Shown here: in pieces, positions 3,590 through 63,645 of the stretch
Layout: the number at the start of each line of letters is the position of its first letter
Position numbering within the stretch: position 1 is the stretch's first letter
DNA from: Candidatus Entotheonellaceae bacterium
GTDB taxonomy: Bacteria > Tectomicrobia > Entotheonellia > Entotheonellales > Entotheonellaceae
Length of the DNA stretch: 64,000 nt
Direction: 5' to 3'
NCBI GenBank assembly: GCA_965238075.1
Contig: OZ250173.1
Span: forward strand, 320,001 to 384,000
Position numbers and translations under genes: made by a program
The notes under the pieces: model-generated
What the model was told of the DNA's origin: nothing
The model's database searches: none
What the model saw: the letters and a program-made list of their open reading frames with translations, nothing else

Positions 3590-3598
3590 CGGCTTTAC

Positions 3599-3637
3599 GG
3601 ATGCGACGTTGCCTCAGTCGCAGGCAACGTCGCATCC
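3599..3637. terminator. 16-bp perfect stem-loop after clpB
   Basis: GGATGCGACGTTGCCT-7nt-AGGCAACGTCGCATCC between convergent genes; no clear U-tract. Confidence 0.55.
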
Positions 3638-3643
3638 CACCGT

Positions 3644-4810: not shown

Positions 4811-4975
4811 GCTTTCCCTGACCCCATCGCTGCCGGATGCCGGCCCGAGCGGCGATGGGCGATCTTCGCATCCATGATCTTCCTCAAGCCGCCGTTCAGC
4901 CGCCTCTCGCGGCGGACGTCATACTCCCCAACCTCTCAAGTCTTGCCCCGCTCTCCTGCCGCAGATACCAATCAA

Positions 4976-5053
4976 GTAGGTCAGATTAGCGAAGCGTAAT
5001 CCGGCATTCCATTGCGCCGCTGTCGGGTTACGCCTACGGCTAACCGGCCCTGC
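4976..5053. repeat. Inverted pair of GTAG-type REP sequences
   Basis: GTAGGTCAGATTAGCGAAGCGTAATCCGGCA plus an inverted copy at 5021-5053; same family at 9120 and 32836. Confidence 0.75.
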
Positions 5054-5578
5054 CTAAAGCCGTCTGTCCAGCCATTCGTCCCGGCGGATGCCGTAAACCA
5101 AGGCTTCTTCCCCATAGAAATCCATGCGGTCCTGCAACCGCTGGCCGAGCTTCTCCGCCACCCGTATCGACGCCGTGTTCTGCGGGCGAATCAGACTGAT
5201 GACACGGTCCCGCCCCATCTCCTGAAATACATAAGCCAAAGCGGCACGGGCGCCCTCGGTGGCAAATCCCTGTCCCCAGGACTGCCGGCGAATCGTCCAT
5301 ATCAATTCCAAGTCGGGCCACCCTGCCGGACAAAATGGGCCGATGCGCCCCACAAGCTCACCGCTGGCGCGCTCCTCAACCGCCCAAGGGCCAAAGCCGA
5401 GCAGTTGCCAATGGCCCACCACCGCGGCCATGTTGCGCCAAGCCTCGGGAGGGGGCAGTGGCCGGCCTTGGGGCAGGTATCGCATGACCTCCGGGTCGGC
5501 CAGCATTTCCGCATAGGCGTCGAAGTCTGCTTGGCAAAACATCCGCAGGCGTAGCCGGGGCGTTTCCAGGATGGCCAC
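5054..5578 (-). CDS. GNAT N-acetyltransferase (RimJ/RimL family)
   Basis: LETPRLRLR start, WGQGFATEGA, NTASIRVAEKLG. Confidence 0.9.
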   Translation of the reverse strand: MAILETPRLRLRMFCQADFDAYAEMLADPEVMRYLPQGRPLPPPEAWRNMAAVVGHWQLLGFGPWAVEERASGELVGRIGPFCPAGWPDLELIWTIRRQSWGQGFATEGARAALAYVFQEMGRDRVISLIRPQNTASIRVAEKLGQRLQDRMDFYGEEALVYGIRRDEWLDRRL

Positions 5579-5925
5579 TATTTCGCCGCCGTGATCATAA
5601 TCTCCACCATGTACTGCGGCGACGCCAACTTACTCTCCACGCAGGCGCGGGCCGGTGGGTTGGCGGGATCGATCCAGGCGTCCCAGACTTCGTTGACGGC
5701 GCTAAAATAGGCCATGTTGGCGAGCCAAATCTGGGCCGACAGTATCTTGGACTTGTCGCTGCCGCAGCGTGCCAGATAGTTGTCCACCTTGGCCAGAATC
5801 TGCTCCGCCTGCGCCTTAGGATCGGCCACCGGTTCGCTGGCCACGAGGCCGGCGAGGTGCACGGTGGAATCGGTCTCGACCGCCTGACTCATGCGCGGGC
5901 CGGTGTCATGTCGCTTGATCGCCAT
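5578..5925 (-). CDS. RidA/YjgF family protein
   Basis: RMSQAV, VNEVWDAW, PPARACVE, VEIMITAA. Confidence 0.9.
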   Translation of the reverse strand: MAIKRHDTGPRMSQAVETDSTVHLAGLVASEPVADPKAQAEQILAKVDNYLARCGSDKSKILSAQIWLANMAYFSAVNEVWDAWIDPANPPARACVESKLASPQYMVEIMITAAK

Positions 5926-6103
5926 CGTCGTCTCCTCTTGTGTTGCATCGGTTTGCAGGCAGCAAGGGCTGCCCGGCGCGGCATCGTAGCGGCTTCACCC
6001 CAGCAGCGCAACAGGCCGAGATACCCCTTGCCAACGCCAGGCCGGACGGGTAGCCTATGCCGCTGCCGCCGTCACAGGTCTACGCAACAATAGGAGGCTC
6101 GGC

Positions 6104-6844
6104 ATGGACGACACAGCGTCACCCCAAGGCACCTCGTTTTCATACAAACGATTGATTCCCGTGGGCGTGCTGGTCCTCGGACTCGTGGCATTTTTCGTCT
6201 TTGATCTCGGTCGCTTCCTCAGCTTCGAGGCCCTGCGGGAAAACCGTGCCGCCCTGCTCAATTGGGTGGACACGTATGGCATCGTCGCCGCCCTCATCTA
6301 CATGCTCATTTATGCCGTCGCCATCGCCTTTTCGGTGCCCGGCGGCGCCATTCTGACCATCACCGGCGGCTTTCTGTTCGGCTCGGTCTGGGGTACGGCG
6401 TGCGTCATCTTTGCCGCCACCGCGGGCGCCACGGCGCTCTTTCTGATCGCCAAAACCTCGTTTGGCGACACGCTGCGGGCCAAGGCCGGTCCGGCGCTGC
6501 AAAGGATGCAGGACGGCTTCCAGGAGGGCGCCCTGAGCTATCTGCTGGTGCTGCGCCTGGTGCCGCTCTTTCCGTTTTTCCTGGTCAATCTGGTGCCGGC
6601 ATTTTTGGGCGTTTCCCTGCGCGTATACGTGGTGGGCACGTTCATCGGCATCATCCCCGGCACCTTCGTGTTCGCCACCGTGGGGGCCGGTCTGGGCAGC
6701 GTGTTTGACCAGGGCGGCGAATTCAGCGCCGCCGGCATCCTCACCCCGCAGATCATCACGGCGCTCGTCGGCCTGGCCGTTCTGGCGCTGATCCCCGTCG
6801 TATACAAGAAAATCAAGGCCCGCTCCGGCAAGGCGGCCGCATAG
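6104..6844 (+). CDS. TVP38/TMEM64 (VTT/DedA-like) membrane protein
   Basis: LRLVPLFPFFLVN motif, multiple TM segments. Confidence 0.9.
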   Translation: MDDTASPQGTSFSYKRLIPVGVLVLGLVAFFVFDLGRFLSFEALRENRAALLNWVDTYGIVAALIYMLIYAVAIAFSVPGGAILTITGGFLFGSVWGTACVIFAATAGATALFLIAKTSFGDTLRAKAGPALQRMQDGFQEGALSYLLVLRLVPLFPFFLVNLVPAFLGVSLRVYVVGTFIGIIPGTFVFATVGAGLGSVFDQGGEFSAAGILTPQIITALVGLAVLALIPVVYKKIKARSGKAAA

Positions 6845-6875
6845 CCCGGCACCGGAACAACAGGAGGACGCGAAC

Positions 6876-8429
6876 ATGGCTCCCGAATCCGCTCAACCCA
6901 CCGGCGCTGCTGCTGTCGAGGTGTGGCCTGCCGACGAGCATAACCTACAATTGCTGGCCAACACGCATCCTGCGGATTATGAGAACCCCACTCCGAACAA
7001 CCCGTACAACCTGGTGGTGTTGGGCGCGGGAACCGCAGGTCTGGTGTCGGCCATCGGCTCCGCCGGGCTGGGCGCGCGGGCGGCGCTCATCGAGAAGCAC
7101 CTGATGGGTGGGGACTGCCTGAATTATGGCTGCGTGCCCAGCAAGGGCATCATTCGCGCCGCCTCGGCGTGGGCCGACGTGCGCGACGCGCCGAACTACG
7201 GCGTGCAGCCGAACGGCGAGGCAACGGTGGATTTCGGGGCCGCCATGGCACGCATGCGGCGGCTGCGGGCGCAGATCAGCCGCAACGACTCGGTGAAGCG
7301 GTACAGCGAGGCGGGGGTGGACGTGTTCCTGGGCGAGGGGCGGTTTACGGGGCCGCGGCAAATCGAGGTTGGCGGGCAGACGCTGCGTTTCGCCAAGGCG
7401 GTAATCGCCACTGGCGGCCGGGCCGTGGCGCCGCCGGTGGAGGGACTAGCCGAAGCGGGATACCTCACCAACGAAACGGTGTTCAGCCTGACCGAACGCC
7501 CGGCGCGACTGGCCGTCATTGGCGGCGGACCGATCGGCTGCGAGCTCGCCCAGACGTTCTGCCGGCTGGGCTCGCAGGTCACTCTCATCCACACCGGCGA
7601 CCACGTGCTCAACCGGGAAGACGCCGACGCCGCCCACCTCGTGCAGGAATCCATGCTGCGGGACGGTGTCGAGCTGGCCTTGTCGGCGTCGCTGTTCGCC
7701 GTCGAGGTCAGAGGCGAGGATAAGGTGCTGCGCTACAAGGATGGCCCCGGCAACACCCGTGAGGTGGCCGTGGACACCATCGTCGTCTCCGCCGGGCGCA
7801 CGGCGAATGTCGACGGCCTCGGACTGGAAGCCGCGGGCGTGGCCTACACGCCGCGGGGCGTGCAGGTGGACGACAACTTGCGTACCAGCAACCCGCACAT
7901 CTTCGCCGCCGGTGACGTGTGCTCGCGCTTCCAGTTCACCCACGCCGCCGATTTCATGGCCCGTATCGTCATCGCTAACGCCTTATTCAAGGGGCGTCAG
8001 AAGGCATCGGCGCTGACGATTCCGTGGTGCACCTACACCGAGCCGCAGATCGCCCACGTCGGCCTGACCGAGGCCACCGCCGCGGCAGCCGGGACCGCCA
8101 TCGACACCTTCACGCAGCCCTTTGACGACGTTGACCGGGCCATCCTCGACGGCGACGACGAGGGATTCGCCAAGGTACACGTCAAAAAAGGCGGCGACAC
8201 GATCCTGGGCGCCACCATCGTAGCGCGCAACGCCGGCGACATGATCGGCATCTACGCCACGGCCATGACCCACGGCCTGGGATTGGGCAAAATTTCCAAG
8301 GTTATTCTCCCCTACCCTACGCAGGCCGAAGCGGTGCGCAAAACCGGCGACTTGTATAACCGCACGCGCCTTACCCCCACGGTTCGAAAAATTATGGGCA
8401 AATGGCTAAGTTGGCAGCGTGGCCGGTAA
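6876..8429 (+). CDS. Pyridine nucleotide-disulfide oxidoreductase (mercuric reductase/LpdA-like)
   Basis: GAGTAG, GGDCLNYGCVPSK redox disulfide, GGGPIG; no C-terminal Cys-Cys pair. Confidence 0.85.
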   Translation: MAPESAQPTGAAAVEVWPADEHNLQLLANTHPADYENPTPNNPYNLVVLGAGTAGLVSAIGSAGLGARAALIEKHLMGGDCLNYGCVPSKGIIRAASAWADVRDAPNYGVQPNGEATVDFGAAMARMRRLRAQISRNDSVKRYSEAGVDVFLGEGRFTGPRQIEVGGQTLRFAKAVIATGGRAVAPPVEGLAEAGYLTNETVFSLTERPARLAVIGGGPIGCELAQTFCRLGSQVTLIHTGDHVLNREDADAAHLVQESMLRDGVELALSASLFAVEVRGEDKVLRYKDGPGNTREVAVDTIVVSAGRTANVDGLGLEAAGVAYTPRGVQVDDNLRTSNPHIFAAGDVCSRFQFTHAADFMARIVIANALFKGRQKASALTIPWCTYTEPQIAHVGLTEATAAAAGTAIDTFTQPFDDVDRAILDGDDEGFAKVHVKKGGDTILGATIVARNAGDMIGIYATAMTHGLGLGKISKVILPYPTQAEAVRKTGDLYNRTRLTPTVRKIMGKWLSWQRGR

Positions 8430-9123
8430 GGGCAAGAGGGTTGCGATGGAGTCGATCGCCGTTGTCATCATGGCCAAGCAGCCTGTGCCGGGCACCGTCA
8501 AAACCCGTCTGCGCCCGCTTCTGTCGGACGATGACATTGCGGTGTTGTACGACAGTTTTCTGCGCGACAGAATCAGTCAGGTCAGGTCACTTTGCGGTGC
8601 CGCCCCCGTGATTGCATATACGCCGGCGGAAAGCCGTCCCTTCTTTGCGGCGCTAGCGCCCGATTTTCTCCTGTTGCCGCAGATTGGCGATGGGTTGTCT
8701 GCCCGGCTGACCTCCGCCTTTCGGCAGCTATTTGATATGGGTCACGAAGGGGCTATCGCCACCGACAGCGATTCGCCTACCCTGCCCACCGAAAGCCTGC
8801 AGCGGGCTCTCGATTCCCTCGCGGCGCACGGCGCCGACGTGGTGCTGGGACCAAGCGCCGATGGCGGCTACTACCTGATCGGCCTGCGGCAGTTGCATCC
8901 CGAGTTGTTTGACGCCATGCCGTGGAGCACTCCGCGGGTGTATGACCAGACCCTGCGTCGCGCCGCGGGGTTGGGCCTGAAAGTCTCGTCGCTGGCGGCT
9001 TGGTACGACGTAGACACGCCAGTGGAATTCGAGCGGTTGCGTGCCGAGGTGGCCCGGTTGGGAACTGCCGCACCCAGGCATACCCGACGGTTTCTCGCGG
9101 AATGGGAGACGGACAAGGTGTAG
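8419..9123 (+). CDS. DUF2064/TIGR04282-type GT-A-fold glycosyltransferase
   Basis: MAKQPVPGTVKTRL, DSPTLP, VLGPSADGGYYLIG, WYDVDT; alternative start ATG 8446. Confidence 0.85.
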   Translation: MAGKGKRVAMESIAVVIMAKQPVPGTVKTRLRPLLSDDDIAVLYDSFLRDRISQVRSLCGAAPVIAYTPAESRPFFAALAPDFLLLPQIGDGLSARLTSAFRQLFDMGHEGAIATDSDSPTLPTESLQRALDSLAAHGADVVLGPSADGGYYLIGLRQLHPELFDAMPWSTPRVYDQTLRRAAGLGLKVSSLAAWYDVDTPVEFERLRAEVARLGTAAPRHTRRFLAEWETDKV

Positions 9124-9151
9124 GTCGGATTAGCCGCAGGCGTAATCCGAC
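9120..9151 (+). repeat. GTAG-type REP sequence
   Basis: GTAGGTCGGATTAGCCGCAGGCGTAATCCGAC, overlapping the upstream stop codon. Confidence 0.75.
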
Positions 9152-9181
9152 GATCCGATAACGTCGAAACAGGAACCATCC

Positions 9182-10120
9182 ATGCGCATTGTGATTATGG
9201 GAACCGGTGGCTTGGGTGGCTACTTCGGCGCCCTGCTGGCGCGAGCTGGCGGAGACGTGACCTTCATCGCCCGAGGCGCGAACTTGCAGGCACTGCGAGA
9301 GCGCGGCCTCACGGTGCAGAGCGTCAATGGTGACTTCACTTTGCCGGTTGTTCAGGCATGCGCCGATCCGGCGGGTATGCCCGAGGCCGATTTCGTACTG
9401 TTCTGCGTGAAAACCTACGGCGTCGCCGACGCAGCGGCCCTCCTGCAACCTGTGGTAGGGCCGACCACCGTCTTGTTGACCTTGCAAAACGGGGTGGATA
9501 CGCCAACCGATTTGCAACACGCCTTCGGCCGCGGCACGGTACTGGCCGGCATCACACGGATCGGCTCAACGCTCGTCGAACCCGGTGTGATTGAGCAACC
9601 GACCCGCGACCGCGCTATCGAGTTCGGCAATCTTGACGCCCACGGCGCCGCGGTCCTCGATTCGGTACGCACCCTGCTGGAAGCCGCCGACATCCCGTCG
9701 GTGGTGTCGCCGGACATCCGCAAGAGTCTGTGGGAGAAACTGGTGCTGATCAGCGCCTTTGCCGGCCTCTCCGCCCTCACGGGTCTTTCCCCCAACCAGC
9801 TTCTGGCTCGGCAGCCGACCCGCACCGTATACACCCACGTCATGGAGGAGGCAGCTGCCGTGGCGCGCGCCGCGGGGGTGGCCTTGGCCGCCGATATCGC
9901 GACGCAAATTCTGGCCTATCTGGATGCGGAGGGCGAACTGGGAAGCGCTTCCATGGCGGTCGATTTTCAGCATCGCCGACGCACCGAAATCGAGGCTATC
10001 AACGGCGCGGTGGTGAGGCATGGCCGGCGTTTGGGCGTTCCGACGCCGGTCAACGAGACGATTTATGCCGCCCTGGTGGTCACGGACGGCTATCATCGCG
10101 AGGAAAGGGAGCAGGCATGA
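9182..10120 (+). CDS. panE: 2-dehydropantoate 2-reductase family
   Basis: GTGGLGG, TLQNG, WEKLV, SMAVD, EIEAING. Confidence 0.85.
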   Translation: MRIVIMGTGGLGGYFGALLARAGGDVTFIARGANLQALRERGLTVQSVNGDFTLPVVQACADPAGMPEADFVLFCVKTYGVADAAALLQPVVGPTTVLLTLQNGVDTPTDLQHAFGRGTVLAGITRIGSTLVEPGVIEQPTRDRAIEFGNLDAHGAAVLDSVRTLLEAADIPSVVSPDIRKSLWEKLVLISAFAGLSALTGLSPNQLLARQPTRTVYTHVMEEAAAVARAAGVALAADIATQILAYLDAEGELGSASMAVDFQHRRRTEIEAINGAVVRHGRRLGVPTPVNETIYAALVVTDGYHREEREQA

Positions 10121-10993: not shown

Positions 10994-12703
10994 ATGAGGC
11001 AAGCACGGTTACGGCAATCCGCAGGGTTGTCCCTGGTCCTGATGCTGCTGCTGAGCATGGTGTTCCTGGGAGGCGGTGCCCAGGCGCAAACCGGCGAGGC
11101 GAAAGTGGACCGTTTGGTGATCGGTCTCATCAATCCGTTCCGGGATTACTTTCGTGCCTGGATCAGCGGCACACCCGACCACAATATCCAGCATGACCCG
11201 ATCTTGGAGTGGCTCATTGAGATCGACCCTGATACGGGCCTATACGTCCCCTGGCTGGCAAAGAGCTGGGAGATGACCCCAGATGGTCGCTTGTGGCGGG
11301 TGAAGCTGCAAGAGGGGGTGAACTATCATCAGGACTACGGTGAATTTACCGCCAAAGATGTGGTGCATAATCATGCGCTGTGGTGCGAGGAGAACTACCC
11401 GGGTCGTGCCGACCCCCCATCGAGTGCCTACCGGACCGGTATTTGCACGGTTGAGCGCGTTGAGGTGATCAATGACCACGAGGTGCTGATGCACTGTAAG
11501 GAGCCGTGCCTCGACTTCGAGTTTTATTACTCCGAAGCGGCCAACGTCATGATGTTCAGCAAGGCACAGTGGGACAAAGAAGGCGAAATGGGCTACGAGC
11601 GCAAGCCGGCCGGCACCGGGCCGTACGAGTTCAAGGAACGCAAATTGGGCCAGTACGTGCTGTACGAACGGGCGCCGACGCCGCATTGGAAACACGGCGT
11701 GGTGGACTGGAAAGAGCTCATGATGACCTGGACCATCGAGGAATCAACGCGCTATGCCCAATTGCTGGCGGGAGAAACGCATCTGACAGAGCTCAACAAG
11801 GACCTCGTGGACCAGTTGGTCTCCAGGGGATACAAGCTGGTTCGCAGTCGCGGGACGGCACAGCAGATACAGATCATCTTTGGCGGGCTCTACTTTGGTA
11901 CGGAGGATCCGCAGACCGGGCGCTACACGGAACACGGCGGCATCACGGGCAAGCTGGACCCGAGCGAGCCGTGGACCAAGAAGAAGGTGCGCCAAGCCAT
12001 GAACAAAGCCATTAACCGCGAAGAATTGCTCGAGGTGCTGTACAAGAACAGAGCGGATTATATGTACGTGCACGGCTTCTACCCCGATCTGCCCGGCTGG
12101 GACCCCACCTGGGAACAACGCTTCCCGGAGATGTATGGCTACGATCCGCAGGCCGCACAGCGCTTGCTGAGAGAAGCCGGCTATCCCAATGGGTTTAAGG
12201 CGAAGGCGTGGTTGTTCCCCTTTGCTGGAGCGCCCGAACTTATTTCGCTCGTCGAAGCGGTACAGATTCAGTTGCTCGACGTGGGGATTGAATTGAGGTT
12301 AGAAGAGGCGGACCTGGTGTCCACGATTGCGCCGATCTGGCGCGCCAGAAAAGCCCAGGGATATCTCGCGGCGGTCCCGCCCTCGAAGAAAGCGGTTGAG
12401 GCGCAGATTGCCGTCTTCAATGCCGGCAAGGCTGGCATACATCAGTTTGAGACGGATGAAATTTACCGCATGTGGGAGGAACTGAAGCAGCTCGCCGACC
12501 CCGCCGAGCGCGACGTCCTGCTGCGCAAGATCGGTAATTACAAATTTGAAAATTTCGAGATCATCCCCCTCTTCAACGTCTTCATCGAGGTGGTGGTGGA
12601 CCCCAACATCGTGGACGACTGGGCCTTCCCCGGCTGGGACGGTGGCGACATCGGTCACACCTGGCGTATCACCGCGTGTAAGCAGGCACAACCGTGCAGG
12701 TAG
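10994..12703 (+). CDS. ABC transporter substrate-binding protein, family 5 (peptide/nickel)
   Basis: Signal peptide; PWLAKSWE, FTAKDV, PAGTGPY, KVRQAMNKAINR; RBS GGAGG. Confidence 0.9.
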   Translation: MRQARLRQSAGLSLVLMLLLSMVFLGGGAQAQTGEAKVDRLVIGLINPFRDYFRAWISGTPDHNIQHDPILEWLIEIDPDTGLYVPWLAKSWEMTPDGRLWRVKLQEGVNYHQDYGEFTAKDVVHNHALWCEENYPGRADPPSSAYRTGICTVERVEVINDHEVLMHCKEPCLDFEFYYSEAANVMMFSKAQWDKEGEMGYERKPAGTGPYEFKERKLGQYVLYERAPTPHWKHGVVDWKELMMTWTIEESTRYAQLLAGETHLTELNKDLVDQLVSRGYKLVRSRGTAQQIQIIFGGLYFGTEDPQTGRYTEHGGITGKLDPSEPWTKKKVRQAMNKAINREELLEVLYKNRADYMYVHGFYPDLPGWDPTWEQRFPEMYGYDPQAAQRLLREAGYPNGFKAKAWLFPFAGAPELISLVEAVQIQLLDVGIELRLEEADLVSTIAPIWRARKAQGYLAAVPPSKKAVEAQIAVFNAGKAGIHQFETDEIYRMWEELKQLADPAERDVLLRKIGNYKFENFEIIPLFNVFIEVVVDPNIVDDWAFPGWDGGDIGHTWRITACKQAQPCR

Positions 12704-37066: not shown

Positions 37067-37150
37067 TGCCGGAGGTCGGACTCGAACCGACACGAGGTTA
37101 CCCTCACGGGATTTTGAGTCCCGCGCGTCTACCAATTTCACCACTCCGGC
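37067..37150 (-). tRNA. tRNA-Leu(CAA)
   Basis: GCCGGAG...GGGA-CTCAAAA-TCCC, long variable arm, GTTCGAGT, ...CTCCGGCA; CCA not encoded. Confidence 0.95.
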
Positions 37151-38702: not shown

Positions 38703-38744
38703 AGAGCCTGCCCCGGACTTGATCCGGGGTACGGGGCAGGCTCT
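38703..38744. repeat. Palindromic intergenic repeat
   Basis: AGAGCCTGCCCCG-GACTTGATCCGGGGTA-CGGGGCAGGCTCT; related partial copy at 63478-63508. Confidence 0.7.
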
Positions 38745-38792
38745 GTTTGGGGTCGGTTGCGGAAAAGGGCGAAATGACACGCTAAGGAGAAG

Positions 38793-41221
38793 TCAACGTC
38801 TTTTTGGCCACCTGTATTCGCCGGTAAGCAGGATGTGGCCCCATCCGAGGGGCGAGGTGTGTGGCAGGAGCTCGGGGACGACGGGCAGACCGGCGTGTCT
38901 TCGCCTGGCGACCGCTTCGCCCAGCCGGGCGATGTTCCAGTAGATGACGATGGCAGCGAGCAGGTTGAGGCCTGCCATGCGGTAGTGCTGTCCCTCCGTG
39001 CTGCGATCCCTGATTTTTCCCTGGCGGCCGATGCGCAAGGCGTTCTTCAGGGCGTGGTGGGATTCTCCCTTGTTCAGGCCGATCTGGGCACGCCGCTGCA
39101 TGGCCGGGTCCAGCGCCCAATCGATCATGAAGAGGGTGCGCTCGATGCGGCCGATTTCGCGCAGCGCCGCGGCGAGGTCATTACGGCGCGGGTAGGCGGC
39201 CAGCTTGCGCAGGATCAGACTCGGGGCGACCGTGCCGGCGGCCAGGGTCGCCCCCAGCCGCAGAACGTCGGGCCAGTTCGACGCGATCAGCGATTGTCGG
39301 AGTTTGCCGCCGATCGGGCCGCGCAGTTCCTTCGGGCAAGCGGCCGGCTCGAAGACGGAGATGCGCTTGGAAGGCAGATCGCGGATGCGCGGCACGAACC
39401 GGTAACCCAGGATCGAGGTGACGGCGAAGACGTGGTCGGTAAAACCGCCGGTGTCGGCGTACTGCTCGCGGATACGGCGGCCGGTCTCGTTCATCAGCAG
39501 GCCGTCCAGGATGTAAGGCGCTTCGTTGACCGTCGCCGGGATGATCTGCGTGGCGAAGGGTCCGAAGCGGTCCGACACGTGCGTGTACGCCTTCAGCCTG
39601 GGCTCGCTGCCGTACCTGGCATTGACCAGGTTCATGGCCTCGCCCTGGCGCGTGGTCGGAAAGAACTGGCCGTCGCTCGACGCGGTGGTTCCCATCCCCC
39701 AGAACGTCGCCATGGGCAGCTTGGCCTGTGCCTCGATCACCATCGCCAGCGCACGGTCCATGGCTTCGCCTTCGACATGCCAGCGCGACAGCCGCATGAG
39801 TTCCCAGTAGTCGTGGGTGTTGGTGGCGTCGGCCATCTTGCCGAGGCTGAGATTGATGCCTTCGGCCAGGAGCACGTTGAGCAAGCCGATCTTGTCGTTG
39901 CAGGGGGCGCCGGTGCGCAGATGGGACAGGACGGCAACCCCCCATAGCCTCTTTTCGCCCTTGGGCTGCGCATCGAGATAACGGTGCCGCTTGGAGGCCG
40001 GGCGCAGAAAGGCTCTCGGGCTGCTGTGGCTGCTGCCGTCGCGGATCAGCCTGGCGGCATCCAGCAGAGGCCGTGCAACCGGGGCGGCCTGGATATCGAG
40101 CGCCCGCAGCATTCGCGGGGCATAGCGTCGAAGGCGCCCGTGTCCCTGCGCCACGTGGGCCAGCGGGTCGTTCGACATCGTATCGGTCAAGCGTGCGGCC
40201 ACAGCCACCAGGTCGCTCAGCCCGTCCCAGCCCAGTTTTCCCGAAACGGCCTGTTCAAGCATGGCGGGTTGATGCCGGGCTTCGAGCAGTGCCTCGCCGA
40301 GATCGGCGAAGGATCGCAGGGTCCGGCGGACGGTTTTCCTGGCATCGTCGATGCGGGCATCGCAGAGTTTTTCTGCCTCGCGCCAGGTTCTGCTGACGAT
40401 GCGGTCATGGGTCTCGACGAGGGCGTCCGCAAGACCCGCCTGCCATTCCACGGCGCACACCGCCAGAATGGCCAGGCGGCGGCTGTCGAGCATCTCCCGC
40501 AGGCCGTCCGCGAAATAGCGTTCTCCCTGCCGCCTCAGGCGGGCAACGCGGTGGGCGGGTACGCCCTCGATGATCCGCTCGGAGAGACCGAGACGCTGCA
40601 GAAACTCCAGTCGATCCAGCAAGCGCCCGGCGACCGCGGCATTGTTGCCCGGCTCGGACTGCCGCAGCCAGACGAACCGCGTCACGCGGTTGTCCAGTGT
40701 TTCCGAAAGCAGCCCGTCGAGAGCCGTTCGTGCCGCGGTGTCGAGACGGCAGGCAGGATGAGTTGCCTTCGGCGGCATTCCTCGACGAGCCGTCTTGCCA
40801 GCTCCTCGTTGGACCGCGCCTCCTCGGCCTGCCCGTCGAGCCAGCCCTTCAGGTGCCGCGCCGCGCGTCCGGCGAACGTGCGGTAGCCGTAGATCGAACG
40901 CAGCGCCGTCATGTGTTCCTGGCGCGTCTGTCGCCGCGCCGCATAGGGCAGCAGCGACTCCACCGCGATGCCCAGCTGGACACCGACGAATTCCACTACC
41001 GGCGACGGGATCAGTTCGCCGGGCTGCAGCACGCGACCGGGATGGCGTAGGGCACAAAGCTGAAGGGCGAAGCCGAGGCGGTTTTCGGCGCGGCGGCGCC
41101 GGCCGATGTGTTCCAGATCATCATCAGCCAAGGTGTAGTGCTTTCGGAGCGACGTCTCATCGACCGGGAGATCGACCAAGGCGGAGCGCTGGCGGTCCGT
41201 GAGAATGGTTCGGCGGGGCAT
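38793..41221 (-). pseudogene. tnpA: Tn3-family transposase, frameshifted and internally deleted
   Basis: MPRRTILT...ENRLGFALQLC; frame change near 40750; SSDGQ, YADTGG, GRIERT, LNKGE motifs; about 810 codons. Confidence 0.9.
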
Positions 41222-41263
41222 GGTTGGGTCAGTTCCGGCAAAGGTTGGACAGGCGACATGGGA

Positions 41264-41854
41264 TCAGGCGTCGAGGAGCCGTCCTTGAGCGTGCCGTCGG
41301 CGTGCAGGTAATGGTAGAGCGTGCTCGTGGGAATGCTGCCAAGCTCACGGCAGATGTCGGGTATCGAGCGCGTCTGGTCGGCCATGAGGTTCTGGGCGTA
41401 GCGCAGCTTCTCGGGGGTCATGACGCGGGGACGGCCGCCTTTGCGTCCACGCCCGCGCCGCCTTGACACCCTCGCGGATGCGCTGTCGGATGACGTTGCG
41501 TTCCATTTCCGCGAAGGCTGCCTGGATCTGCAGAAAGGCGCGGCCCGCCGGCGCGGTGGTGTCCATCGGTGAATTGAGGGCGCGGAACCCGACGCCGCGG
41601 TGGTCGAGGTCGTCGATCAGGGCGATGAGTTCGCCCGCCCGGCGGCCCAGACGGTCGAGGTCGAGGACGACAAGGACGCCGCCCTGGCGCAGGTAATCGA
41701 GACAGGCGGCCAAGTTCGGTCGGTCAGAGGCGGCGCCGGAAGCACGGTCCTCGAACACGCGCTCGCATCCAGCGTCGTTGAGGGCGTCGAGCTGGCGGTC
41801 GAGTATCTGACGGCCTTCGGCGGTGGATACGCGGGCGTAGCCAATGAGGCCCAT
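41264..41854 (-). pseudogene. tnpR: Serine resolvase, frameshifted
   Basis: IGYARVST, LDRLGR, AEMER; GRKGGRP and the HTH (STLYHYL) lie in another frame. Confidence 0.88.
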
Positions 41855-41993
41855 GGGGTGATGTCCTCGCGGTCTCGAAAACGTTGTCTTGAGCGTATTT
41901 TATCGTAAAAAGATATTTTCGGGGTTGTCGGGAAGATTTCGCAGCAAAAGGCGGGTCGTGAGGGCGTACTTCAGCGAGTCACGACAAAGAACT

Positions 41994-43666
41994 CAGACTG
42001 TGTGAAAACACCCTTTCTTGAAACCCACATACCGAACACGGGATACTGAGAACCATGGCACATATCACAGGTGATGACCGTTCTCAGATTCTGCTTCTTC
42101 CAGAAACCGTGGAAGACTATGGCGGCCCCGACAACCCGGTGCGCTTCGTCGACGCGTTCGTCGATGGCCTTGATCTGGAGGCTGCCGGCTTCCGGCGCGT
42201 ACAACCTAAAGCGACAGGACGACCGGGGTACGATCCGGGCGATCTCCTGAAGCTCTACATCTATGGGTACCTCAACCGCATCCGTTCCAGCCGGCGCCTG
42301 GAGGTGGAGACCCACCGAAACCTCGAGGTGATCTGGCTTCTGCGTCGCCTCCGGCCCGACTTCAAGACCATCGCGGATTTCCGGCGCGACAACCGCAGGG
42401 CGTTTCGCCAAGTGTTCCGGAGCTTTGTATCGCTGTGCCGCGAACTCGGCCTGTACGGACGTGAACTCCTGGCTGTCGACGGCACCCGCATCAAGGCGGT
42501 AAACAGCCGCAAGCGCAATTTCACGCGGGCGGGGCTCGACCACAGGCTCAAGAAGACTGACGAGCGCCTTGAGCGCTACCTGAAGGAAATGGACGAAGCG
42601 GACGCCCAGGATTCCGGCGGCAGCGCGAAATCCACCACCGACCTCGCGGCGAAAATCGAATCGCTGCGTAAACGCCGAGCAGCGCTTCAGGCTCATAAGA
42701 AGGCGCTCGAACAGAGCGGCGAGAGTCAACTCTCGCTCACCGACCCGGATGCCCGGGCGATGGAAGCACGCACCCGCGTTGCAGTGGGGTACAACGCCCA
42801 GATCGCGGTGGACACCAAACACAATCTGATCGCTGAACAGCAGGTCCACAGCAAGGTCTCGGACCTGGGCCTGCTGACCGAAACTGCGAGCGTGGCGCGT
42901 GGGAATCTCAAGGCGGAACGCATGGCTGTCGTGGCTGACAAAGGCTACTTCAAGATCGAGGACATCGAAGCTTGCGAAGCCGAGGGCGTAACGCCGTACG
43001 TGCCAAAGCCCAACCGCAGCCCTGCCCGTTCAGCCGGCCGCTTCCCGAAGTCGGCGTTCCATTACGACAAGGAAACCGACACCTATATATGTCCCAACGG
43101 CCAGCGCCTGTCGCCCACGTACGCCACGAAAGTCCGCAACACGCCTTTGACATGTTACGCCAATTTCCAGGCTTGTCGGGAATGCGGCATACGCGAGCGC
43201 TGCACGAAGTCATATTACCGAGGCATTGTGCGCTACGTGAACGAGGCCGTTCTGGAACGCATGGCGGAACGGCTCGCCAGGCGCCCCGAGATCCTGAAGC
43301 GCCGTGGCGAGAGCGTGGAGCATCCTTTCGGCTCCATCAAACAGTGGATGGGACAGGGCGCGTTCCTGATGCGGCGCCTTGAGAACGTGCGCGGCGAGTT
43401 CAGCCTTACCGCCCTTGCGTACAACATGCGGCGCGCGATCAACCTTGTCGGAGTTCCCACGCTCGTTGAAGCCGCGCACCCCTGATCGGGGTGTCCCCGG
43501 CCAAATCTCACCTCACACCGCGATTGAACCACCCAGTGCCTGCCATGAGCGACAAATCCGAGCCGCCTGGATTCCCCTGCAGCCGAATTATGGATGCTAC
43601 CAATCGACGACCGCATCACCTCTGAAGAGCTCAGGTCTCGCGCCCCGTGACTTTTCGCACGGTCTG
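41994..43666 (+). mobile_element. IS1182-family insertion sequence
   Basis: TIRs CAGACTGTGTGAAAA / TTTTCGCACGGTCTG (13/15); 4-bp target duplication AACT. Confidence 0.92.
42055..43485 (+). CDS. IS1182-family transposase
   Basis: GRPGYDP, SSRRLE, PDFKTIADFR, DGTRIKA, SLTDPDAR, ADKGY, VEHPFG; uninterrupted. Confidence 0.95.
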   Translation: MAHITGDDRSQILLLPETVEDYGGPDNPVRFVDAFVDGLDLEAAGFRRVQPKATGRPGYDPGDLLKLYIYGYLNRIRSSRRLEVETHRNLEVIWLLRRLRPDFKTIADFRRDNRRAFRQVFRSFVSLCRELGLYGRELLAVDGTRIKAVNSRKRNFTRAGLDHRLKKTDERLERYLKEMDEADAQDSGGSAKSTTDLAAKIESLRKRRAALQAHKKALEQSGESQLSLTDPDARAMEARTRVAVGYNAQIAVDTKHNLIAEQQVHSKVSDLGLLTETASVARGNLKAERMAVVADKGYFKIEDIEACEAEGVTPYVPKPNRSPARSAGRFPKSAFHYDKETDTYICPNGQRLSPTYATKVRNTPLTCYANFQACRECGIRERCTKSYYRGIVRYVNEAVLERMAERLARRPEILKRRGESVEHPFGSIKQWMGQGAFLMRRLENVRGEFSLTALAYNMRRAINLVGVPTLVEAAHP

Positions 43667-44078
43667 AACTGTTTGTCGTGGACCCGGAAGCGGGTTATAG
43701 GGGGCGGAAAAGAGAGCCCTCGAGGCTTAGAGTGTCATTTCGCCCTTTTCCGCAACCGACCCCGTTTTGTGAGAGGGTCCGATGCGGGTAGGCGGCATTC
43801 TGACGGTCTCGGAACCAGAGTGCCTACCCCCCGCTGTGCCTGAGGCGCCTCCGCCATCGCCGGTCCAGTTAAACGGGAAGTGCGTGAAGCTGGGCTCCAG
43901 GCTACGCCGTCTAACCCCACTGATTCGATGGGCAAGTTTCCAAGCCGAGACTTTCTTGGACCCAGCGGCCCAACATCGCGGGCAAGGCATAACTTGCTTA
44001 TCCCACAAGGTCGGGATGGATCACTTTGAGGGTGATGGCTCAGCACGGCTCATGGCGTAGATAAGCCTGCCGGACATT

Positions 44079-46122: not shown

Positions 46123-46380
46123 GGGGTCGTTTGCGGGAGAGGGCGATTTAATACCCTAAGCGCAAGGATACACTTTCCGTGTCCGCGCAGCTTGCTTCTC
46201 AGTCCAACATGGCGGTAAAGCGTGACAGGTTTGACACGGATTCTCGGTGGCAACGGATATGTCCCGACTTTTCATCGTAGCTTGAAGAGGCGGACTTGGA
46301 CCTTTCGTTCCCTGGCACAGGCGGCGAAGATGCCGAAAACGAGGCATCCGGTCACTATTGTCGTATCGATCCGCTCGTCG
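46123..46380. mobile_element. Orphan Tn3-family end (Tn5393-like IR) with resolvase remnants
   Basis: 38-bp GGGGTCGTTTGCGGGAGAGGGCGATTTAATACCCTAAG; minus-strand fragments IDTTIVTGCLVFGIFAA and VKPVTLYRHVG. Confidence 0.75.
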
Positions 46381-47154: not shown

Positions 47155-48281
47155 GTGATTGAACTCCGACCTTTTCAACACCAATTCATCCGTGAGGCGA
47201 CGGCGCCGGGCATTTGGCTGCCCGTGTTCTTTCTCCTGACGACCCCCTTTTTGTCCCCGGCACTGAGTCTGTCCTATGCGCAGCGTCCATCGAACAGGCA
47301 AGAATCACGTTCAGGTTTGCCCGCGGTGAGTTAGAGCCGAGAGGCGGGTATAGGTTCCTGGATTCTCACACGCGGATTGGGATAACGCACCGGGACACCA
47401 ACACGCGCTTGCGGGTGATTGGTTCCAATGGCCGGACGGCTATGGGGCTTGTCGAGTGTCCCTGGGCGATATGCGACGAACCGGGCGCATGGGAAACCAA
47501 CGGCGGACAACTACTGCATGACGCCATAGAGACGGCGAAGGGCAAGCCGGGCTCGCCATTGCGGGCACTGCACCTTGGCACCTTGGCGCCTGCCGAAAGT
47601 GGTTGGTGGCATGACCTGGTTGACGGTGGAAGCCATAACACGACCTATGTTCAAGCCTTGCGCGGGGATCCCGAGAAGTGGGATCAGTGGCAGGAAATAC
47701 GACGATGCAATCCGTTGACGGCCGTATCGGCTGCGTTTCGCCAGAAGCTATTGCAGGAACGCGACGCGGCGCGGCGTGATAGTCGGCTCAAGGCGCGGTT
47801 CCTGTCATACCGTCTCAACATACCAAGCGCCGACGAAGCCACCATGTTGTTGCATGTAGACGATTGGCAGCGGGTGCTAGACAGACCTGTACCACGGCGC
47901 GAAGGGCGGCCCATATTTGCCTATGACCTTGGCGGCGGCCGGGCGTGGTCGGCTGCGGTGGTGTTGTGGCGCAATGGTCGAGTTGAAGCGTTGGCGGTGG
48001 CGCCCGGCATCCCTGGCATTGACGAGCAAGAAGCGGGACCGGATGGCGCGGGGAACGTACCGTATGCTGCTACAGAACGGCTCCCTGCACGTTGCTGAGG
48101 GCCTGCGGGTAACAGCCACCTGCTGCGCTTCATGGTGCTGCATGCCGAGCGTTTGGGGTGCCTGATGGCATAATCTGCGATAGGTTTCGGCTCGGAGAAT
48201 TGCGCGACGTTGTGGGCGCGGTAGGTGTTTACCCGCGTATAGCAAGATGGAGTGATGCGACGGCGGACATACGGGCCTTGC
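47155..48281 (+). pseudogene. Phage terminase large subunit remnant
   Basis: IELRPFQ Q-motif, AASIEQAR, Walker B AICDE, NP, nuclease AYDLG, ICDRFR; Walker A missing, several frameshifts, cut by Tn3 IR. Confidence 0.75.
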
Positions 48282-48301
48282 GGGGTCGGTTGCGGAAAAG
48301 G

Positions 48302-48419
48302 GTAGAGTCGGCGACTGGCGCGGTTGCGGTAGGCGGACGGGGGTAGCTGTTCCCGGCGGCTTTCGCAATGCCGGTGCCTCACTCCTCGCCGTGGCTCCGT
48401 TTCCAGTCGCCGCTCTCCG
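48302..48419 (-). ncRNA. Group II intron 3' remnant A (domain VI)
   Basis: Minus strand GAGCGGCGACUGGAAACGGAG...UGAGGCACCGG...GCGAAAGC...ACCGCGCCAGUCGCCGACUCUAC; long hairpin, candidate branch A at -7, AC terminus. Confidence 0.75.
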
Positions 48420-48566
48420 GTAGGGTCGAAAACTGGCGCGGTAGCCACAGGGGCGGGGAGTCGCAGTTGGCCGGAGGCTTTCGCCATCTCCCGGTGCCTC
48501 AGTCCGCCCCTTAACTCCGTTTCCAGCTTCCGCCACGTCGTACGCAGCATGCGGATTTCCCGCACT
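48420..48566 (-). ncRNA. Group II intron 3' remnant B (partial domain V plus domain VI)
   Basis: Minus strand AGUGCGGGAAAUCCGCAUGCUGC (D5-like) followed by GCUGGAAACGGAG...ACCGCGCCAGUUUUCGACCCUAC. Confidence 0.8.
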
Positions 48567-48600
48567 AGGCCTTTGAGTAGTAATGGAACAGAAAATAGTG

Positions 48601-49272
48601 TTAAGCGTTGCTGAGTTGACGGCCGGCGTCTTTCGGCGACCCGGTGCCGTTGGCGTATTGACCTCGGGGCATGAGATGGCGAGAGCGCATGAAATGATAG
48701 AGCGTCGAGTGGTCTACTCCGGTGATCTTGGCAATCGACGCCTTTGAGACCTTGAGGTCCAGGAGCCTTTGAATTTCGTCTTCCTTGCCATTGAATCTTG
48801 ACTGCCCCAATTGTCCCTTTGGACGCCCCAGGCGTTTACCCGAAGCCCGTGCTGCCGCCAGTCCTTCCTTCGTTCGCATGGAAATGAGTTCCCGCTCGAT
48901 TTCCGCAAACAAGCCGAACAACGTCACCATGACCTTGCTGTGCAAATCCTGCTTGCCCGCCAGACGAATGCCTTCCTTGATCGCCAGAAACCGGACCTGT
49001 TGCTTCAGCAAGGCATCCACCGTGGCAATCACCTCGCCTACCGAGCGGCCCATGCGGCTCAACTCGCTGACAACGAGGGTGTCGCCCGGCTCCAGCCGTG
49101 CCATCCAGAGGTCGATCTGTCGTGCTTTGGGCGAGCGCCTCGACGACACGCTGAGCTCCATGAAGGCGCTGACCTCGAACTTTTCCTGGCGGGCAAACTC
49201 CAGGATCGCCAGGCGTTGATTTCCGACATCCTGCGAGTCCTTCGAGACGCGTAAATAGGCGATCGTCTTCAT
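48601..49272 (-). CDS. Serine recombinase (resolvase/invertase)
   Basis: AYLRVS, SELSRMGRS, AEIERELISMRTKEGL, LGRP, C-terminal HTH. Confidence 0.93.
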   Translation of the reverse strand: MKTIAYLRVSKDSQDVGNQRLAILEFARQEKFEVSAFMELSVSSRRSPKARQIDLWMARLEPGDTLVVSELSRMGRSVGEVIATVDALLKQQVRFLAIKEGIRLAGKQDLHSKVMVTLFGLFAEIERELISMRTKEGLAAARASGKRLGRPKGQLGQSRFNGKEDEIQRLLDLKVSKASIAKITGVDHSTLYHFMRSRHLMPRGQYANGTGSPKDAGRQLSNA

Positions 49273-49624
49273 GGCGCGGCCATTCTGTGGAAGCTATCCT
49301 TTATTTGGGACTATTTCCTACGGTATGGATGGAGTAATCCTGAGCCTTTCCTTTCGGCATATCCGTTTGGAAGAAACGTTCGTTTTGTCCTGACAAGTCA
49401 TGGCCGCCATCGACCCTGAGAGCCCCTCTCGTTTGATCCGAGGCACCGGGTTCCCGGAAACTGAAGGCATGATTGATTGGAAGTTTGCCAACAGTATCCG
49501 GTCCTTTGATGACACGGCGCCCCACCGGTTGATCCATCCAGGCTTACAAGAGGTCATCCAGTCAGAGTTCGCCCCCGTGTACAATTCTTTGTACAAATCT
49601 TGCGATGATGCCAGCATCTCTACA

Positions 49625-56776: not shown

Positions 56777-57638
56777 GGCCCAGTAACAACATAGCTGTCA
56801 TAGAGTGCCAAATTGACGGTGCTCGCCGCAGAGCACTCTGACTCACCCTTTGACTCATGTCTCCCACAGTCCCTCGAATCGAACGCCAGCGACACGCGTA
56901 TAGTGAACCGTGTGTTTGGGGTCTCGATGCCCAAGATGGTCCTGGATCAGCCTCAGGTCATAGCCTTGATTGGCCAGATAAAACCCACAGGAATGCCGCA
57001 GCATGTGGGGATTAGGCGCACCGAGTCCGGCACGCCGGGCAGCGCGCCGATGAGGTAGTTGACCGATTGTCGGGTCATCGGCTGCCCGCGCTCAGACAGA
57101 AACAGCCACGGCAACGCGTCGTGGCGCGTGTGCAGGTAGCGCTTGATCGCCCGCAGTTCATCGCCGGCGATCGGATGTTCCACAGACAGGCCACTTTTGA
57201 GGCGCCGAATCCACACCCAGGCGCGTTTGAGGTTCAGGTCCTGGCGCCGCATGCGGACGGCTTCGCTGACGCGCAAGCCGTGGCGATACATCATGAGCAA
57301 CAGCAGAAAATCCCGGACGCCATGGCGGTCTTTCCTGGCCGCTTCAAGGAGGGCATCCATTTCGGCATCGCTTAGGAAGTTGCGGGCGCGTTCATGCCCG
57401 TCCGTCAGCCAGACATCCTCACTTTTTACATTTCGCCTTCTGGGCACGACGTCTCACCCCCTCTCGAAGCCGCGCGGTGACTCGCCCTGTTACCCGGCAC
57501 TCTTGACAAAAGGCGTGTTAGGTAAAGAGAGTCAGGCAGCCACCTGTCTTTCAATTGACAAGCGCTCACGCATGTCCAGCTCAAAGATGCCGTAGCCCGA
57601 AGTCTGGCACCTTATGACCGCTATGTTGTTACTGGGCC
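56777..57638. mobile_element. 862-bp TIR-bounded, transposase-less cassette
   Basis: 34-bp TIRs GGCCCAGTAACAACATAGC..., 31/34 identical, at 56777-56810 and 57605-57638. Confidence 0.8.
56855..57447 (-). pseudogene. FimB/FimE-like tyrosine recombinase, single frameshift near 57043
   Basis: RHGLRVSE in the first frame; [25 protein letters not shown] in the second. Confidence 0.88.
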
Positions 57639-57688
57639 GAAAAGGTGGGTCGTGAGAGCGTACCGCAGCGTGTCGCGACAAAGAGTTG

Positions 57689-57840
57689 GATACTGTTGGC
57701 GAACCCCAATTGAATCGCCAAGTGGCCAAGTTTGGACAATGGCCGCGAGCCCCGACATGGGCCTCACCATTGGCATTGCTGGCTCCCTCCTGTACGACAA
57801 GGGGGGCAAATGACAGTAAGCAGGGTTTGCCAACAGTATC
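57689..57840. mobile_element. 152-bp MITE
   Basis: 18-bp TIRs GATACTGTTGGC(G/A)AACCC (17/18); 6-bp duplication GAGTTG on both sides. Confidence 0.85.
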
Positions 57841-57957
57841 GAGTTGTTTGTCGTGAATGATTCCTGCCATCCAGACCCGGTCGAGAGAGCTGCGAGGGTA
57901 GGGAAAGAGGGCTCGGGTGCGTGGAGTGTCTTTTCGCCCTTTTCCGCAACCGACCCC

Positions 57958-59000: not shown

Positions 59001-59432
59001 TGTGCTATCTCCTCGCGCACAGCCGGGCGAGGGCGGCGCGGTGGATGTTGGGTCGACGCCCTGGCCGTCATGGTCGGCCAGGGCGTTTCTGCGTCTGTTC
59101 CGTCTGTTCTGGAAATGGGGAATGTCAGTCCGGTCCAAACTCGACTTAAATCATGTCGGACTCGGGGCTTCCCTTCTTTATATCAAGGCGGACGTTTTCT
59201 GCGGACAATGGCCAGGATGCGCCGTTGGTTCTTCCACGACAGACTGAGCCAGGCGCTGGCAGATGCGGGCAGAGGGGGGGCGTTTTGAGGCACCCCTCCG
59301 GCACTCCGATTGCGAAATGGGTGTCGATCGGGTGGTCAGCGGATGGTGTGTGGATGCAGAGGGATACTTCTGGACAGCAAGTAACGGCGCAGAATAGCGC
59401 CGTTTTATGCGGAAATGATGGAAGAGGAAAAA

Positions 59433-59792
59433 TGGAGGCGGCGGGAATCGAACCCGCGTCCGAAAGCCTTCGGTTACAGTGTCTACATGCTTAGCATGGG
59501 GAAGATGATTTCGCCTCTCCCCGACCTCCCCAGCCGGGCAAGGAAGACGCTAGCCTGGATTAATTTCGCACCGTGCTCTCCCCAGGCAGGGGGAGCAGGG
59601 GCTATCCCACATCGTGACGCCTGATCCTGACACCGTGGGCAAGTGACAGGGAGACGCTGGCCGGGATTAAGCGGCCAGGGCTACCTCATAATCGTTGGCG
59701 ATTATGTTTTGTTCCGCTTTTTTACGAGGCCAGCGGAGTCCTCGGCATGCAACCGTAACGTCATGAACTCCCGTCGAAATCCTTTCGCCCCC
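59433..59792 (-). ncRNA. ssrA: tmRNA; tag peptide ANDYEVALAA
   Basis: 5' GGGGGCGAAAGGATTTCGAC, 3' GGGTTCGATTCCCGCCGCCTCCA; tag ORF 59699-59667; directly downstream of smpB. Confidence 0.96.
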
Positions 59793-63432: not shown

Positions 63433-63645
63433 CACTCGCAGTTGCCCTGTGCTATATAAGGGAGGTCCGACCCAAGCTCCGAACCTGATCCGGGGTCCGG
63501 GGCAGGCTTTCCACCACCGGAAAAGCCCTGCACGCCGGCAGAAGCCGGAGTGACGGCGGGCAGGCGAACCTTCCGTTTTCCCTACGAGCCGCTCGCCTCT
63601 GTCGAGGCTCTGGCGTCCATCCACCAAACTACAGGAGGCACCTCC

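Follow-up and report, generated by a model that had tools for sequence, protein, structure and literature searches.

A segment of the window (the whole 64,000-nucleotide stretch of DNA analyzed here) very probably represents the inert remains of selfish DNA in three layers: a group II intron (A) in a terminal inverted repeat of a Tn3-family transposon (IR1), a second group II intron (B) inside the first, and an event at a terminal inverted repeat of a second Tn3-family type (IR2). Read on the minus strand, the order 3' of a resolvase gene is IR2, unit B, unit A and the outer 20 nt of IR1. Comparison with related sequences identifies 48302-48419 and 48420-48567 as the 3' ends of group II introns. 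Both remnants are inert, since neither can splice or move. A tRNA gene (37067-37150) and a tmRNA gene (59430-59792) bracket the dense cluster of mobile DNA in which the relic is found; this cluster also holds an IS630-type transposase, the passengers of the IR2 element (a two-component system and other genes), an 862-bp element (56777-57638) in which 34-nt inverted repeats (GGCCCAGTAACAACATAGCTGTCA...) surround a phage-integrase fragment, and a res-like region before an IR1 copy at 57920-57957. The relic does nothing now, and its interest lies in recording how layers of selfish DNA colonise one another.

Two intron 3' ends and their relatives

The two units had been described as imperfect tandem repeats of about 118 bp, and this description holds: the minus strands of 48302-48419 and 48420-48540 have 81 identical columns in a 121-column alignment, and BLAST aligns unit A with unit B at 75% identity (E 5.5e-12). 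Tandem Repeats Finder did not report them, given their divergence, which amounts to about 30% between A and B and to only 3-9% between each unit and its own family. The four common motifs listed for the minus strand are all present in both units, together with the ends CGACTCTAC (unit A) and CGACCCTAC (unit B). The intron A remnant (48302-48419, minus strand) is the last 118 nt of the intron, with a linker CGGA (48416-48419) and an oversized D6 (48302-48415) finishing in CTAC; it reads CGGA-GAGCGG...CGACTCTAC from 48419 to 48302, is directly followed by CCTTTTCCGCAACCGACCCC at 48301-48282, and is 97% identical to the 3' ends of three full A introns (L032, L035, and L063). The intron B remnant (48420-48567, minus strand) is the last 148 nt of an intron located between the D5 site and the linker of A, and consists of a D5 part (48540-48567), a linker GAC (48537-48539) and a D6 (48420-48536), reading ...TAGTGCGGGAAATCCGCATGCTGCGTAC-GAC-GTGGCGG...CGACCCTAC from 48567 and finishing at 48420. 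The earlier note had placed one limit of unit B correctly at 48420, but the other, at 48540, falls short of 48567; likewise, the hairpin that it called D5-like and set beside unit B is indeed linked to D5, but as the distal and 3' part (28 nt, 48540-48567) of the real D5 of B, according to the full B intron at a locus of a sister genome (L051). These last 28 nt are all that B retains in the window of a domain usually about 34 nt long, with a 2-nt bulge and a tetraloop, A retains none of it, and no further A or B sequence was found in the window beyond the two remnants.

At gathering score, Rfam matches no intron family anywhere in the window, and a search of 47800-49000 at E values up to 10 yielded no RF00029 or RF02003 match, only chance-level matches. 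This is the result expected for fragments without D1-D5, and the evidence for intron identity is therefore drawn from relatives. The covariance-model check suggested for RF00029 thus has a divided outcome, with no match in the window itself and scores of 42.8-44.6 bits for homologues in sister genomes, which also match RF02003 (D1-D4, type 4) at 88-113 bits; the gathering scores of these models are 40 and 49, respectively. Once relatives are included, every check put forward in the earlier note comes out in its favour. A copies from sister genomes of the same genus are 94-97% identical to unit A and score 88-92 bits with RF02003. In the genome under study, a further locus (L003) shares 91% identity with unit A and is preceded by a canonical D5, with a score of 44.6 bits for RF00029. 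Canonical D5 hairpins are carried by A-family relatives, and the full D5 of B at L051 pairs, yet it is not reported by RF00029 at E values up to 0.1. At the 5' end of full relatives, all eight copies start with GTGCGCCGTG, in accordance with the GUGYG consensus, a feature observed in the relatives only.

Relatives encoding a reverse transcriptase (RT), which the intron reading had led the earlier note to expect, were also found. Frameshifted RT/maturase open reading frames with RVT_1 and GIIM domains lie upstream of L003, the same two domains occur in relatives L045 and L021, and a continuous RT frame of 463 aa is present at L072. Both A-lineage RT frames examined in this genus (L021 and L069) are broken, and the only RT match in the genome under study is the one degenerate A copy at L003/L021, with none in the window. 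ORF-less forms of 877 nt (A) and 848 nt (B) are common in the family. Searches at the family and order level, which covered the same 14 genomes, gave matches in one genus only. In plasmids of Bradyrhizobium, Acidithiobacillus caldus, and Paraburkholderia, homologues of the units are found 20-60 nt after annotated ltrA or group II intron RT/maturase genes; a plasmid BLAST with a 285-nt query returned 47 records with unit homologues, none of which reached into the inverted repeat part.

The best 80 RT loci elsewhere (L069-L148, from other phyla) are introns of the same family, about 1990 nt long, with RTs 76-84% identical. The family is multicopy per genome in the Vicinamibacterales, the Terriglobia, the Binatia, and proteobacterial MAGs, and every sublineage occupies a conserved multicopy target particular to it; frequently, a stop codon precedes the insertion site by about 15 nt.

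Intron B inside intron A and the loss of the 5' parts

The proposal that intron B homed into intron A near the D5/D6 junction, generating a twintron, is supported by exact boundaries at L051 (sister genome G007), where a complete twintron has an 848-nt ORF-less B between the D5 and the linker of A. At the 5' junction (...GTCCGGTT / GTGCGTCC) B starts with GTGCG directly after the D5 of A, and at the 3' junction (CGACCCTAC / CGGAGAGCGG) CCCTAC directly precedes the CGGA linker of A; the whole reads A-D5 GAGCCGGATGCGGGAGAGCCGCACGTCCGGTT / GTGCGTCC...(848 nt)...TTTCGACCCTAC / CGGAGAGCGG...A-D6. The inner intron hence has 5' and 3' boundaries of its own, and it also has its own D1 region (RF02003, 113 bits). 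The window is 95.5% identical to this twintron over 266 nt and keeps only the 3' junction, CCCTAC / CGGAGAGCGG. By base complementarity, the B loop GCAACCGAG could pair with CGGTT at the end of the D5 of A. Six of the eight B 3' ends in the genus occupy this site of A, the linkers of their hosts being CGGA, CGAT, CGATAT, and TGAT, and the remaining two (L002 and L027) lie elsewhere. As these hosts include both A subtypes, the distribution suggests more than one B insertion, although recombination between A copies could also account for it.

Homology to B stops at 48567, and the next base, 48568, is the tip of IR2, an intact 38-bp Tn3-family inverted repeat of the second type (48568-48605, plus strand; GGCC...GTTAAG) that occurs only once in the window, the outer tip of which thus abuts the 5' cut of B. 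The IR2 boundary is corroborated by a second genomic copy, which begins at the same base and is flanked differently, and by intron-bearing IR2 copies, the flanks of which diverge after ...AAAGGCC. The serine resolvase gene of the IR2 element (48601-49272, minus strand; Pfam Resolvase, 110.5 bits) has its stop codon inside IR2 and reads toward the intron relics. No partner of IR2 was found in the window at up to 10/38 or 4/20 mismatches, and the genome holds two forward and no reverse copies, the second at G000:C1:3297474 (L061, 1501-1538). Both genomic copies are lone ends beside the tail of a resolvase-like gene. Because B ends at the IR2 tip, the window holds no other A or B sequence, and the sole RT match of the genome is the degenerate L003/L021 copy, the loss of the 5' parts is attributed to the IR2 element, either by insertion into the D5 of B or by an adjacent deletion; the two are indistinguishable, given that IR2 lacks a partner and a 5-bp duplication is not apparent. 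The earlier note had suggested that the 5' parts and RT frames were later deleted. The loss itself stands, but a transposon event at IR2 fits better than an unspecified deletion, and RT frames need not have been present at all, since the ORF-less forms of about 877 nt (A) and 848 nt (B) are the common ones.

An alternative that we regard as rather unlikely is that twintron RNA, with B unspliced, retrohomed into IR1, that the cDNA was aborted inside the D5 of B, and that IR2 arrived later. It accords with the various cuts seen in B+A composites at A-type targets of sister genomes (219 nt of B in L025, 6 nt in L041, and about 45 nt in L026 and L031), with the nearly identical cut point of L002, where IR2 is absent, and with the mobility of composite twintrons discussed for Thermosynechococcus elongatus (PMC2882425). 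Had the cDNA been aborted, however, the inner 18 nt of IR1, as the 5' exon, should adjoin the cut, and they are missing; a cut meeting the very first base of an intact IR2 would be an unlikely coincidence. The locus in question, L002 (G000:C1:2805102-2805245), is a solo 3' B fragment flanked by unique DNA and cut within about 2 nt of the cut in the window, which hints at a hot spot of cDNA abortion. A palindromic repeat of about 90 nt was considered as the cause of the L002 cut and rejected, for it lies 96 nt upstream and the DNA abutting B is unique. This REP- or MITE-like repeat has at least 40 copies in the genome, including 4976-5051 and 9119-9158 in the window and the copy upstream of L002, and a related GC-rich hairpin motif is found at 38710-38742 and 63476-63508. 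The 34-nt repeat type of the 56777-57638 element also abuts truncated B copies in sister genomes, with its inner part upstream of B in L025 and L041 and its outer end 1 nt downstream of B in L027.

Transposon ends as the target of intron A

The outer 20 nt of IR1 (48282-48301, plus strand) are, on the minus strand, the 3' exon of intron A. They match the outer end of the 38-bp IR1 copies at 20 of 20 positions and stop where unit A ends, in agreement with the initial observation that a Tn3 inverted repeat breaks off there after about 20 of its 38 nt. Complete 38-bp IR1 copies are present in the window at 38749-38786, 43726-43763, and 57920-57957. The first two are the uninterrupted ends, 97% complementary to each other, of an IR1-type Tn3-family element (38749-43763) that carries an IS, a resolvase (41345-41854, minus strand), and a tnpA gene (38793-41057, minus strand; DDE_Tnp_Tn3, 400.6 bits) adjoining IR1 38749-38786, the product of which reaches 69% identity with annotated transposases of the Tn3 family. 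The third copy (57920-57957, minus strand) has four mismatches and the opposite orientation, is preceded by res-like repeats, and is a possible former partner of the end at 48282. The 5-bp flanks at 48282 and 57957 differ (CTTGC versus TTTAA), indicating that the present layout is not one simple insertion, and those at 38749 and 43763 (TGTTT versus GTTTT) have only 4 nt in common. No clean 5-bp target duplication was found at the IR1 and IR2 ends of the window; this has no bearing on the identity of the inverted repeat sequences, and the region is a mosaic. Both repeat types end Tn3-family transposase genes (DDE_Tnp_Tn3, 436.8 and 496.7 bits), the higher score being that of a gene at L045 whose terminal IR2-type repeat holds an A intron at 18|20, and both present the hallmarks of Tn3-family ends, that is, a repeat of about 38 bp with a TAAG end beside a DDE_Tnp_Tn3 transposase or resolvase gene. 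A putative third repeat type, taken from L043 and L044, is absent from the window. Another stranded transposon end is apparent at 46123-46160, a degenerate IR1-like repeat with 8/38 mismatches and the orientation of the 48282 end. Mutually similar res-like inverted repeats occur at 49471-49508 (upstream of the resolvase gene), at 57673-57716, and at 57823-57856, just inside IR1 57920-57957.

The earlier note had proposed that intron A homed into the transposon repeat and belongs to a lineage that targets Tn3 ends, in which case the exons of full-length copies should reconstitute the 38-bp repeat. They do so exactly, split 18|20, for two unrelated repeat sequences. In sister genome G011, the exons CTTAGCGTGTCATTTCGC / CCTTTTCCGCAACCGACCCC are exactly IR1, around two A copies, one of 1994 nt and one of 363 nt, that occupy opposite ends of a single element, and the exons CTTAACACAGTTTTCTGT / TCCATTGCTACTCAAAGGCC are IR2, around an 877-nt ORF-less copy. 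In these copies the intron follows the tnpA stop codon by 23-24 nt and has the direction of tnpA, with which it would presumably be co-transcribed. On the G011 contig L045, the IR1 element spans 3245-9413, its 1994-nt intron has a frameshifted RT and its 363-nt intron is an internal-deletion form, and the IR2 end with the 877-nt intron lies directly beside it (11271-12185).

Twenty A 3' ends were scored in five genomes of the genus, leaving out L026 and L031, with degenerate ends, and L028, which is cut. Six, one of them degenerate, are followed by the IR1 tip (16-20 nt), three by the outer 20 nt of IR2, and two by a third 20-mer that starts with GGCC on the other strand and is a putative inverted repeat; what follows the other nine is different, in most cases AAGTTG..., where the 5' exon has a hairpin ...ATAAC-N5-GTTATCAG. 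Since the copies are related, these counts are not independent and overstate the number of separate events. The same 20-nt IR1 tip follows the A introns of L029, L030, L037, and L041, the DNA outside the tip is different at every A copy, and in one further contig (L070) an A intron likewise rebuilds the repeat at 18|20. Among the best 80 RT loci, a tblastn search with three Tn3 transposases placed one next to the intron only at L069, which confines homing into inverted repeats to this sublineage, and exons of the IR1 type were found only at L069 and L070 among 57 scorable sites.

This restricted distribution is also what would be seen if no lineage targeted the repeats and a single chance insertion had been copied with the transposon or by recombination, so that its recurrence reflected descent. 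A Tn3-family inverted repeat interrupted at base 20 is unlikely to support transposition. The repeat-borne copies do all come from one genus and one contig, are 88-97% identical, and have a Tn3 transposase beside them at only one of the best 80 RT loci elsewhere, but descent leaves unexplained that two unrelated repeats are occupied at one register by introns whose EBS1 differs and matches each repeat, that the two ends of one element hold introns of unequal length (1994 and 363 nt), and that the outside flanks differ at every copy, besides requiring a repeat split at base 20 to transpose. Descent from one chance insertion is hence considered unlikely, and homing by a lineage that targets Tn3-family ends is the reading adopted here.

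The match between intron and target resides in a D1 loop, CCGCC-N7-CGGGG, the seven variable positions of which are EBS1. In all seven genus copies that keep D1, EBS1 pairs at 7/7 positions with exon positions -7 to -1 of its own site, counting one G-U pair in two of them. The pairs are GTGAAAT with IBS1 ATTTCGC for the IR1 target, ACAGAAA with TTTCTGT for the IR2 target, and CTGATAA with TTATCAG, or its variant CGGATAA with TTATCCG, for the hairpin sites, so that the EBS/IBS pairing put forward as a check fits IR1 and IR2 alike. In other taxa, 44 of the best 80 RT loci (RT 76-100% identical) have both intron ends and the EBS1 loop, providing 32 distinct pairs with a mean of 5.44 of 7 positions paired, whereas partners shuffled 1000 times gave 3.20 +/- 0.21 and never more than 4.0. 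A candidate EBS2, ACGCGC with GCGTGT, fits IR1, pairs at only 4/6 positions in IR2, and has no match at hairpin-type sites. Intron position 11 changes from one target type to another, but it was rejected as the partner of exon +1, with which it does not pair.

The distal 5' exon is also biased. Across 46 distinct sites, which are not independent, T is found at -16 in 20, A at -15 in 24, A or G at -14 in 33, and C or G at -13 in 38, with T never seen at the last position. In IR1 and IR2, positions -16 to -13 are the conserved ...TTAG/TTAA of the inner end of the repeat. A requirement for T-15 has been reported for the RmInt1 protein (PMC4615759), and from these base frequencies it appears that the RT of this family may read a T-A-R motif located some 15 nt before the insertion site, which would explain the identical register in unrelated repeats.

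The enlarged D6, the proposed history and known systems

The D6 of each unit is about 115 nt long. Its basal helix has 13 bp, the A situated 7 nt from the end is left unpaired, an internal loop reads GAAAC, and GCGAAAGC caps the distal helices. Covariation of the stems had been pointed out within the two units and is borne out by an alignment of 12 sequences from four bacterial classes and this genus, in which 30 pairs have 97.5% of cells paired and 11 vary on both sides; not one of these measures was reached in 500 shuffles, and slid registers have 31-51% of cells paired. The 13 pairs of the basal helix have 99.4% of cells paired. Both units end ...CG-A-C(U/C)C-UAC, with the A unpaired at column 119 of 125, and thus show the bulged branch-point A, 7-8 nt from an AY 3' end, that characterizes a D6. 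Relative to shuffled sequences, the minus strands fold with z of -2.9 and -3.1, versus -2.2 and -1.0 for the plus strands, and the predicted folds of the relic units have -52 and -57 kcal/mol.

Such stable folds (z about -3), directly downstream of the resolvase stop codon and on the same strand, could also suggest that the resolvase gene now uses the relic as a structured 3' untranslated element or as its terminator. This is very unlikely: the resolvase-IR2-relic layout was not seen at the other IR2 copy of the genome or in sister genomes, no T run follows the hairpins, and D6 ancestry fully accounts for the structure. Finally, adjacency, similar length, and a common fold might suggest that the units are a tandem duplication of one D6, or of a repeat unrelated to introns, and not two introns, but this can be dismissed with near certainty, for at L051 B has its own 5' GTGCG, D1 (113 bits), and D5 between the D5 and linker of A, solo copies of each unit occur elsewhere (L002 and L003), and each unit is far closer to its own family than to the other.

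Taken as two introns in a transposon end, the remnants are consistent with a history in three steps. A lineage A intron would first have reverse-spliced into IR1 DNA between bases 20 and 21 from the tip, in the direction of the terminal gene of the transposon, guided by the 7-bp EBS1-IBS1 pairing and probably by protein recognition of T-A-R about 15 nt upstream, a motif that coincides with the conserved TAAG inner end of Tn3-family inverted repeats. An ORF-less lineage B intron would then have reverse-spliced just after the D5 hairpin of A, forming the twintron. Lastly, the IR2 element, with its resolvase and passenger genes, would have inserted into the D5 of B or deleted up to it, reducing B to its final 148 nt and A to its final 118 nt, in an IR1 that is split and presumably dead as a transposase substrate.

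These elements can be joined in a broader reading, offered tentatively as something possible but not probable. The family would use its protein to read a stop-codon-like T-A-R, and so settle past the last gene of multicopy elements; one sublineage would have locked onto the TAAG of Tn3-family ends at 18|20, re-tuning EBS1 to each repeat; the introns would split, and probably sterilise, transposon ends, while Tn3 elements cut introns; B would have specialised on the D5/D6 junction of A; and a conserved D6 of about 115 nt is a further trait of the family. If true, this would amount to reciprocal parasitism between two classes of mobile DNA. Furthermore, if intron insertion inactivates Tn3-family ends, it would act as a natural brake on a transposon family with an important part in spreading genes. 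The relatives, for their part, form a natural series in which one intron scaffold is re-aimed at three target types through a 7-nt loop, and are ready material for the study of target change in group II introns.

No paper describing group II introns in Tn3-family inverted repeats was found in the open-access literature. The target of RmInt1 reportedly lies within ISRm2011-2 and not in its terminal repeat. RmInt1 nonetheless provides a likeness, as its natural target is inside another mobile element (PMC1802570). The closest parallel is RmInt2 of Sinorhizobium meliloti (class D), which sits in the inverted repeats of ISRm17 and for which the advantage of two sites per element has been discussed (PMC4615759). 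As described there, it has an RT without endonuclease, uses terminal inverted repeats as its homing site, and combines EBS/IBS pairing with a distal exon read by the protein (PMC4615759). It differs in that its host is an IS and not a Tn3-family transposon, whereas the introns described here occupy two or three unrelated repeats at a fixed 18|20 register by means of retargeted EBS1 variants, have a ribozyme with a D6 of about 115 nt, and are known from sequence alone. EcKTE56.groEL (IIB1) resembles them in being inserted at the very end of a gene and co-transcribed without breaking the coding sequence, but its target is the stop codon of groEL, a housekeeping gene (PMC12584367), and not a site 23-24 nt past the tnpA stop codon, inside an inverted repeat.

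The introns of T. elongatus are reported to have multiplied as ORF-less forms, to have diverged into families by their EBS, and to have entered an IS or another intron (PMC2882425). TeI3/TeI4 are alike in that ORF-less derivatives outnumber their RT-bearing parents and the EBS has diverged between families (PMC2882425), but their inner introns are described as entering the start of the outer ORF in domain IV, whereas B lies between D5 and D6, and they belong to another intron family and another host phylum. No description of an enlarged D6 in group II introns was found in the open-access literature. The 'domain VII' of B.c.I4-type introns (PMC1865049; PMC2691827; PMC4424553) likewise enlarges the 3' end of a bacterial group II intron in an unusual way, but its extra 53-56 nt are reported to come after D6, shifting the splice site, while the extra 80 nt or so of the present family are inside D6, beyond a normal basal stem with the bulged A. 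With its added length and its covariation, this D6 represents a structural variant of the domain that holds the branch site, and it may interest structural biologists of ribozymes. The new elements are the Tn3-family inverted repeat as a target class, the fixed register across unrelated repeats, the D5/D6 junction as the site of an inner intron, and, as graded by the open-access literature only, the large D6. The targeting of IS repeats, ORF-less proliferation, and bacterial twintrons are already in print, truncated intron copies amid other mobile DNA are the norm in bacteria (PMC4424553), and current understanding is not overturned. A second kind of twintron may be present in sister genome G011, where an A-type intron (L049, around 1207-2529, minus strand) is split near nt 415 by about 2 kb of DNA encoding a different RT/maturase of 440 aa with a YADDWLL motif.
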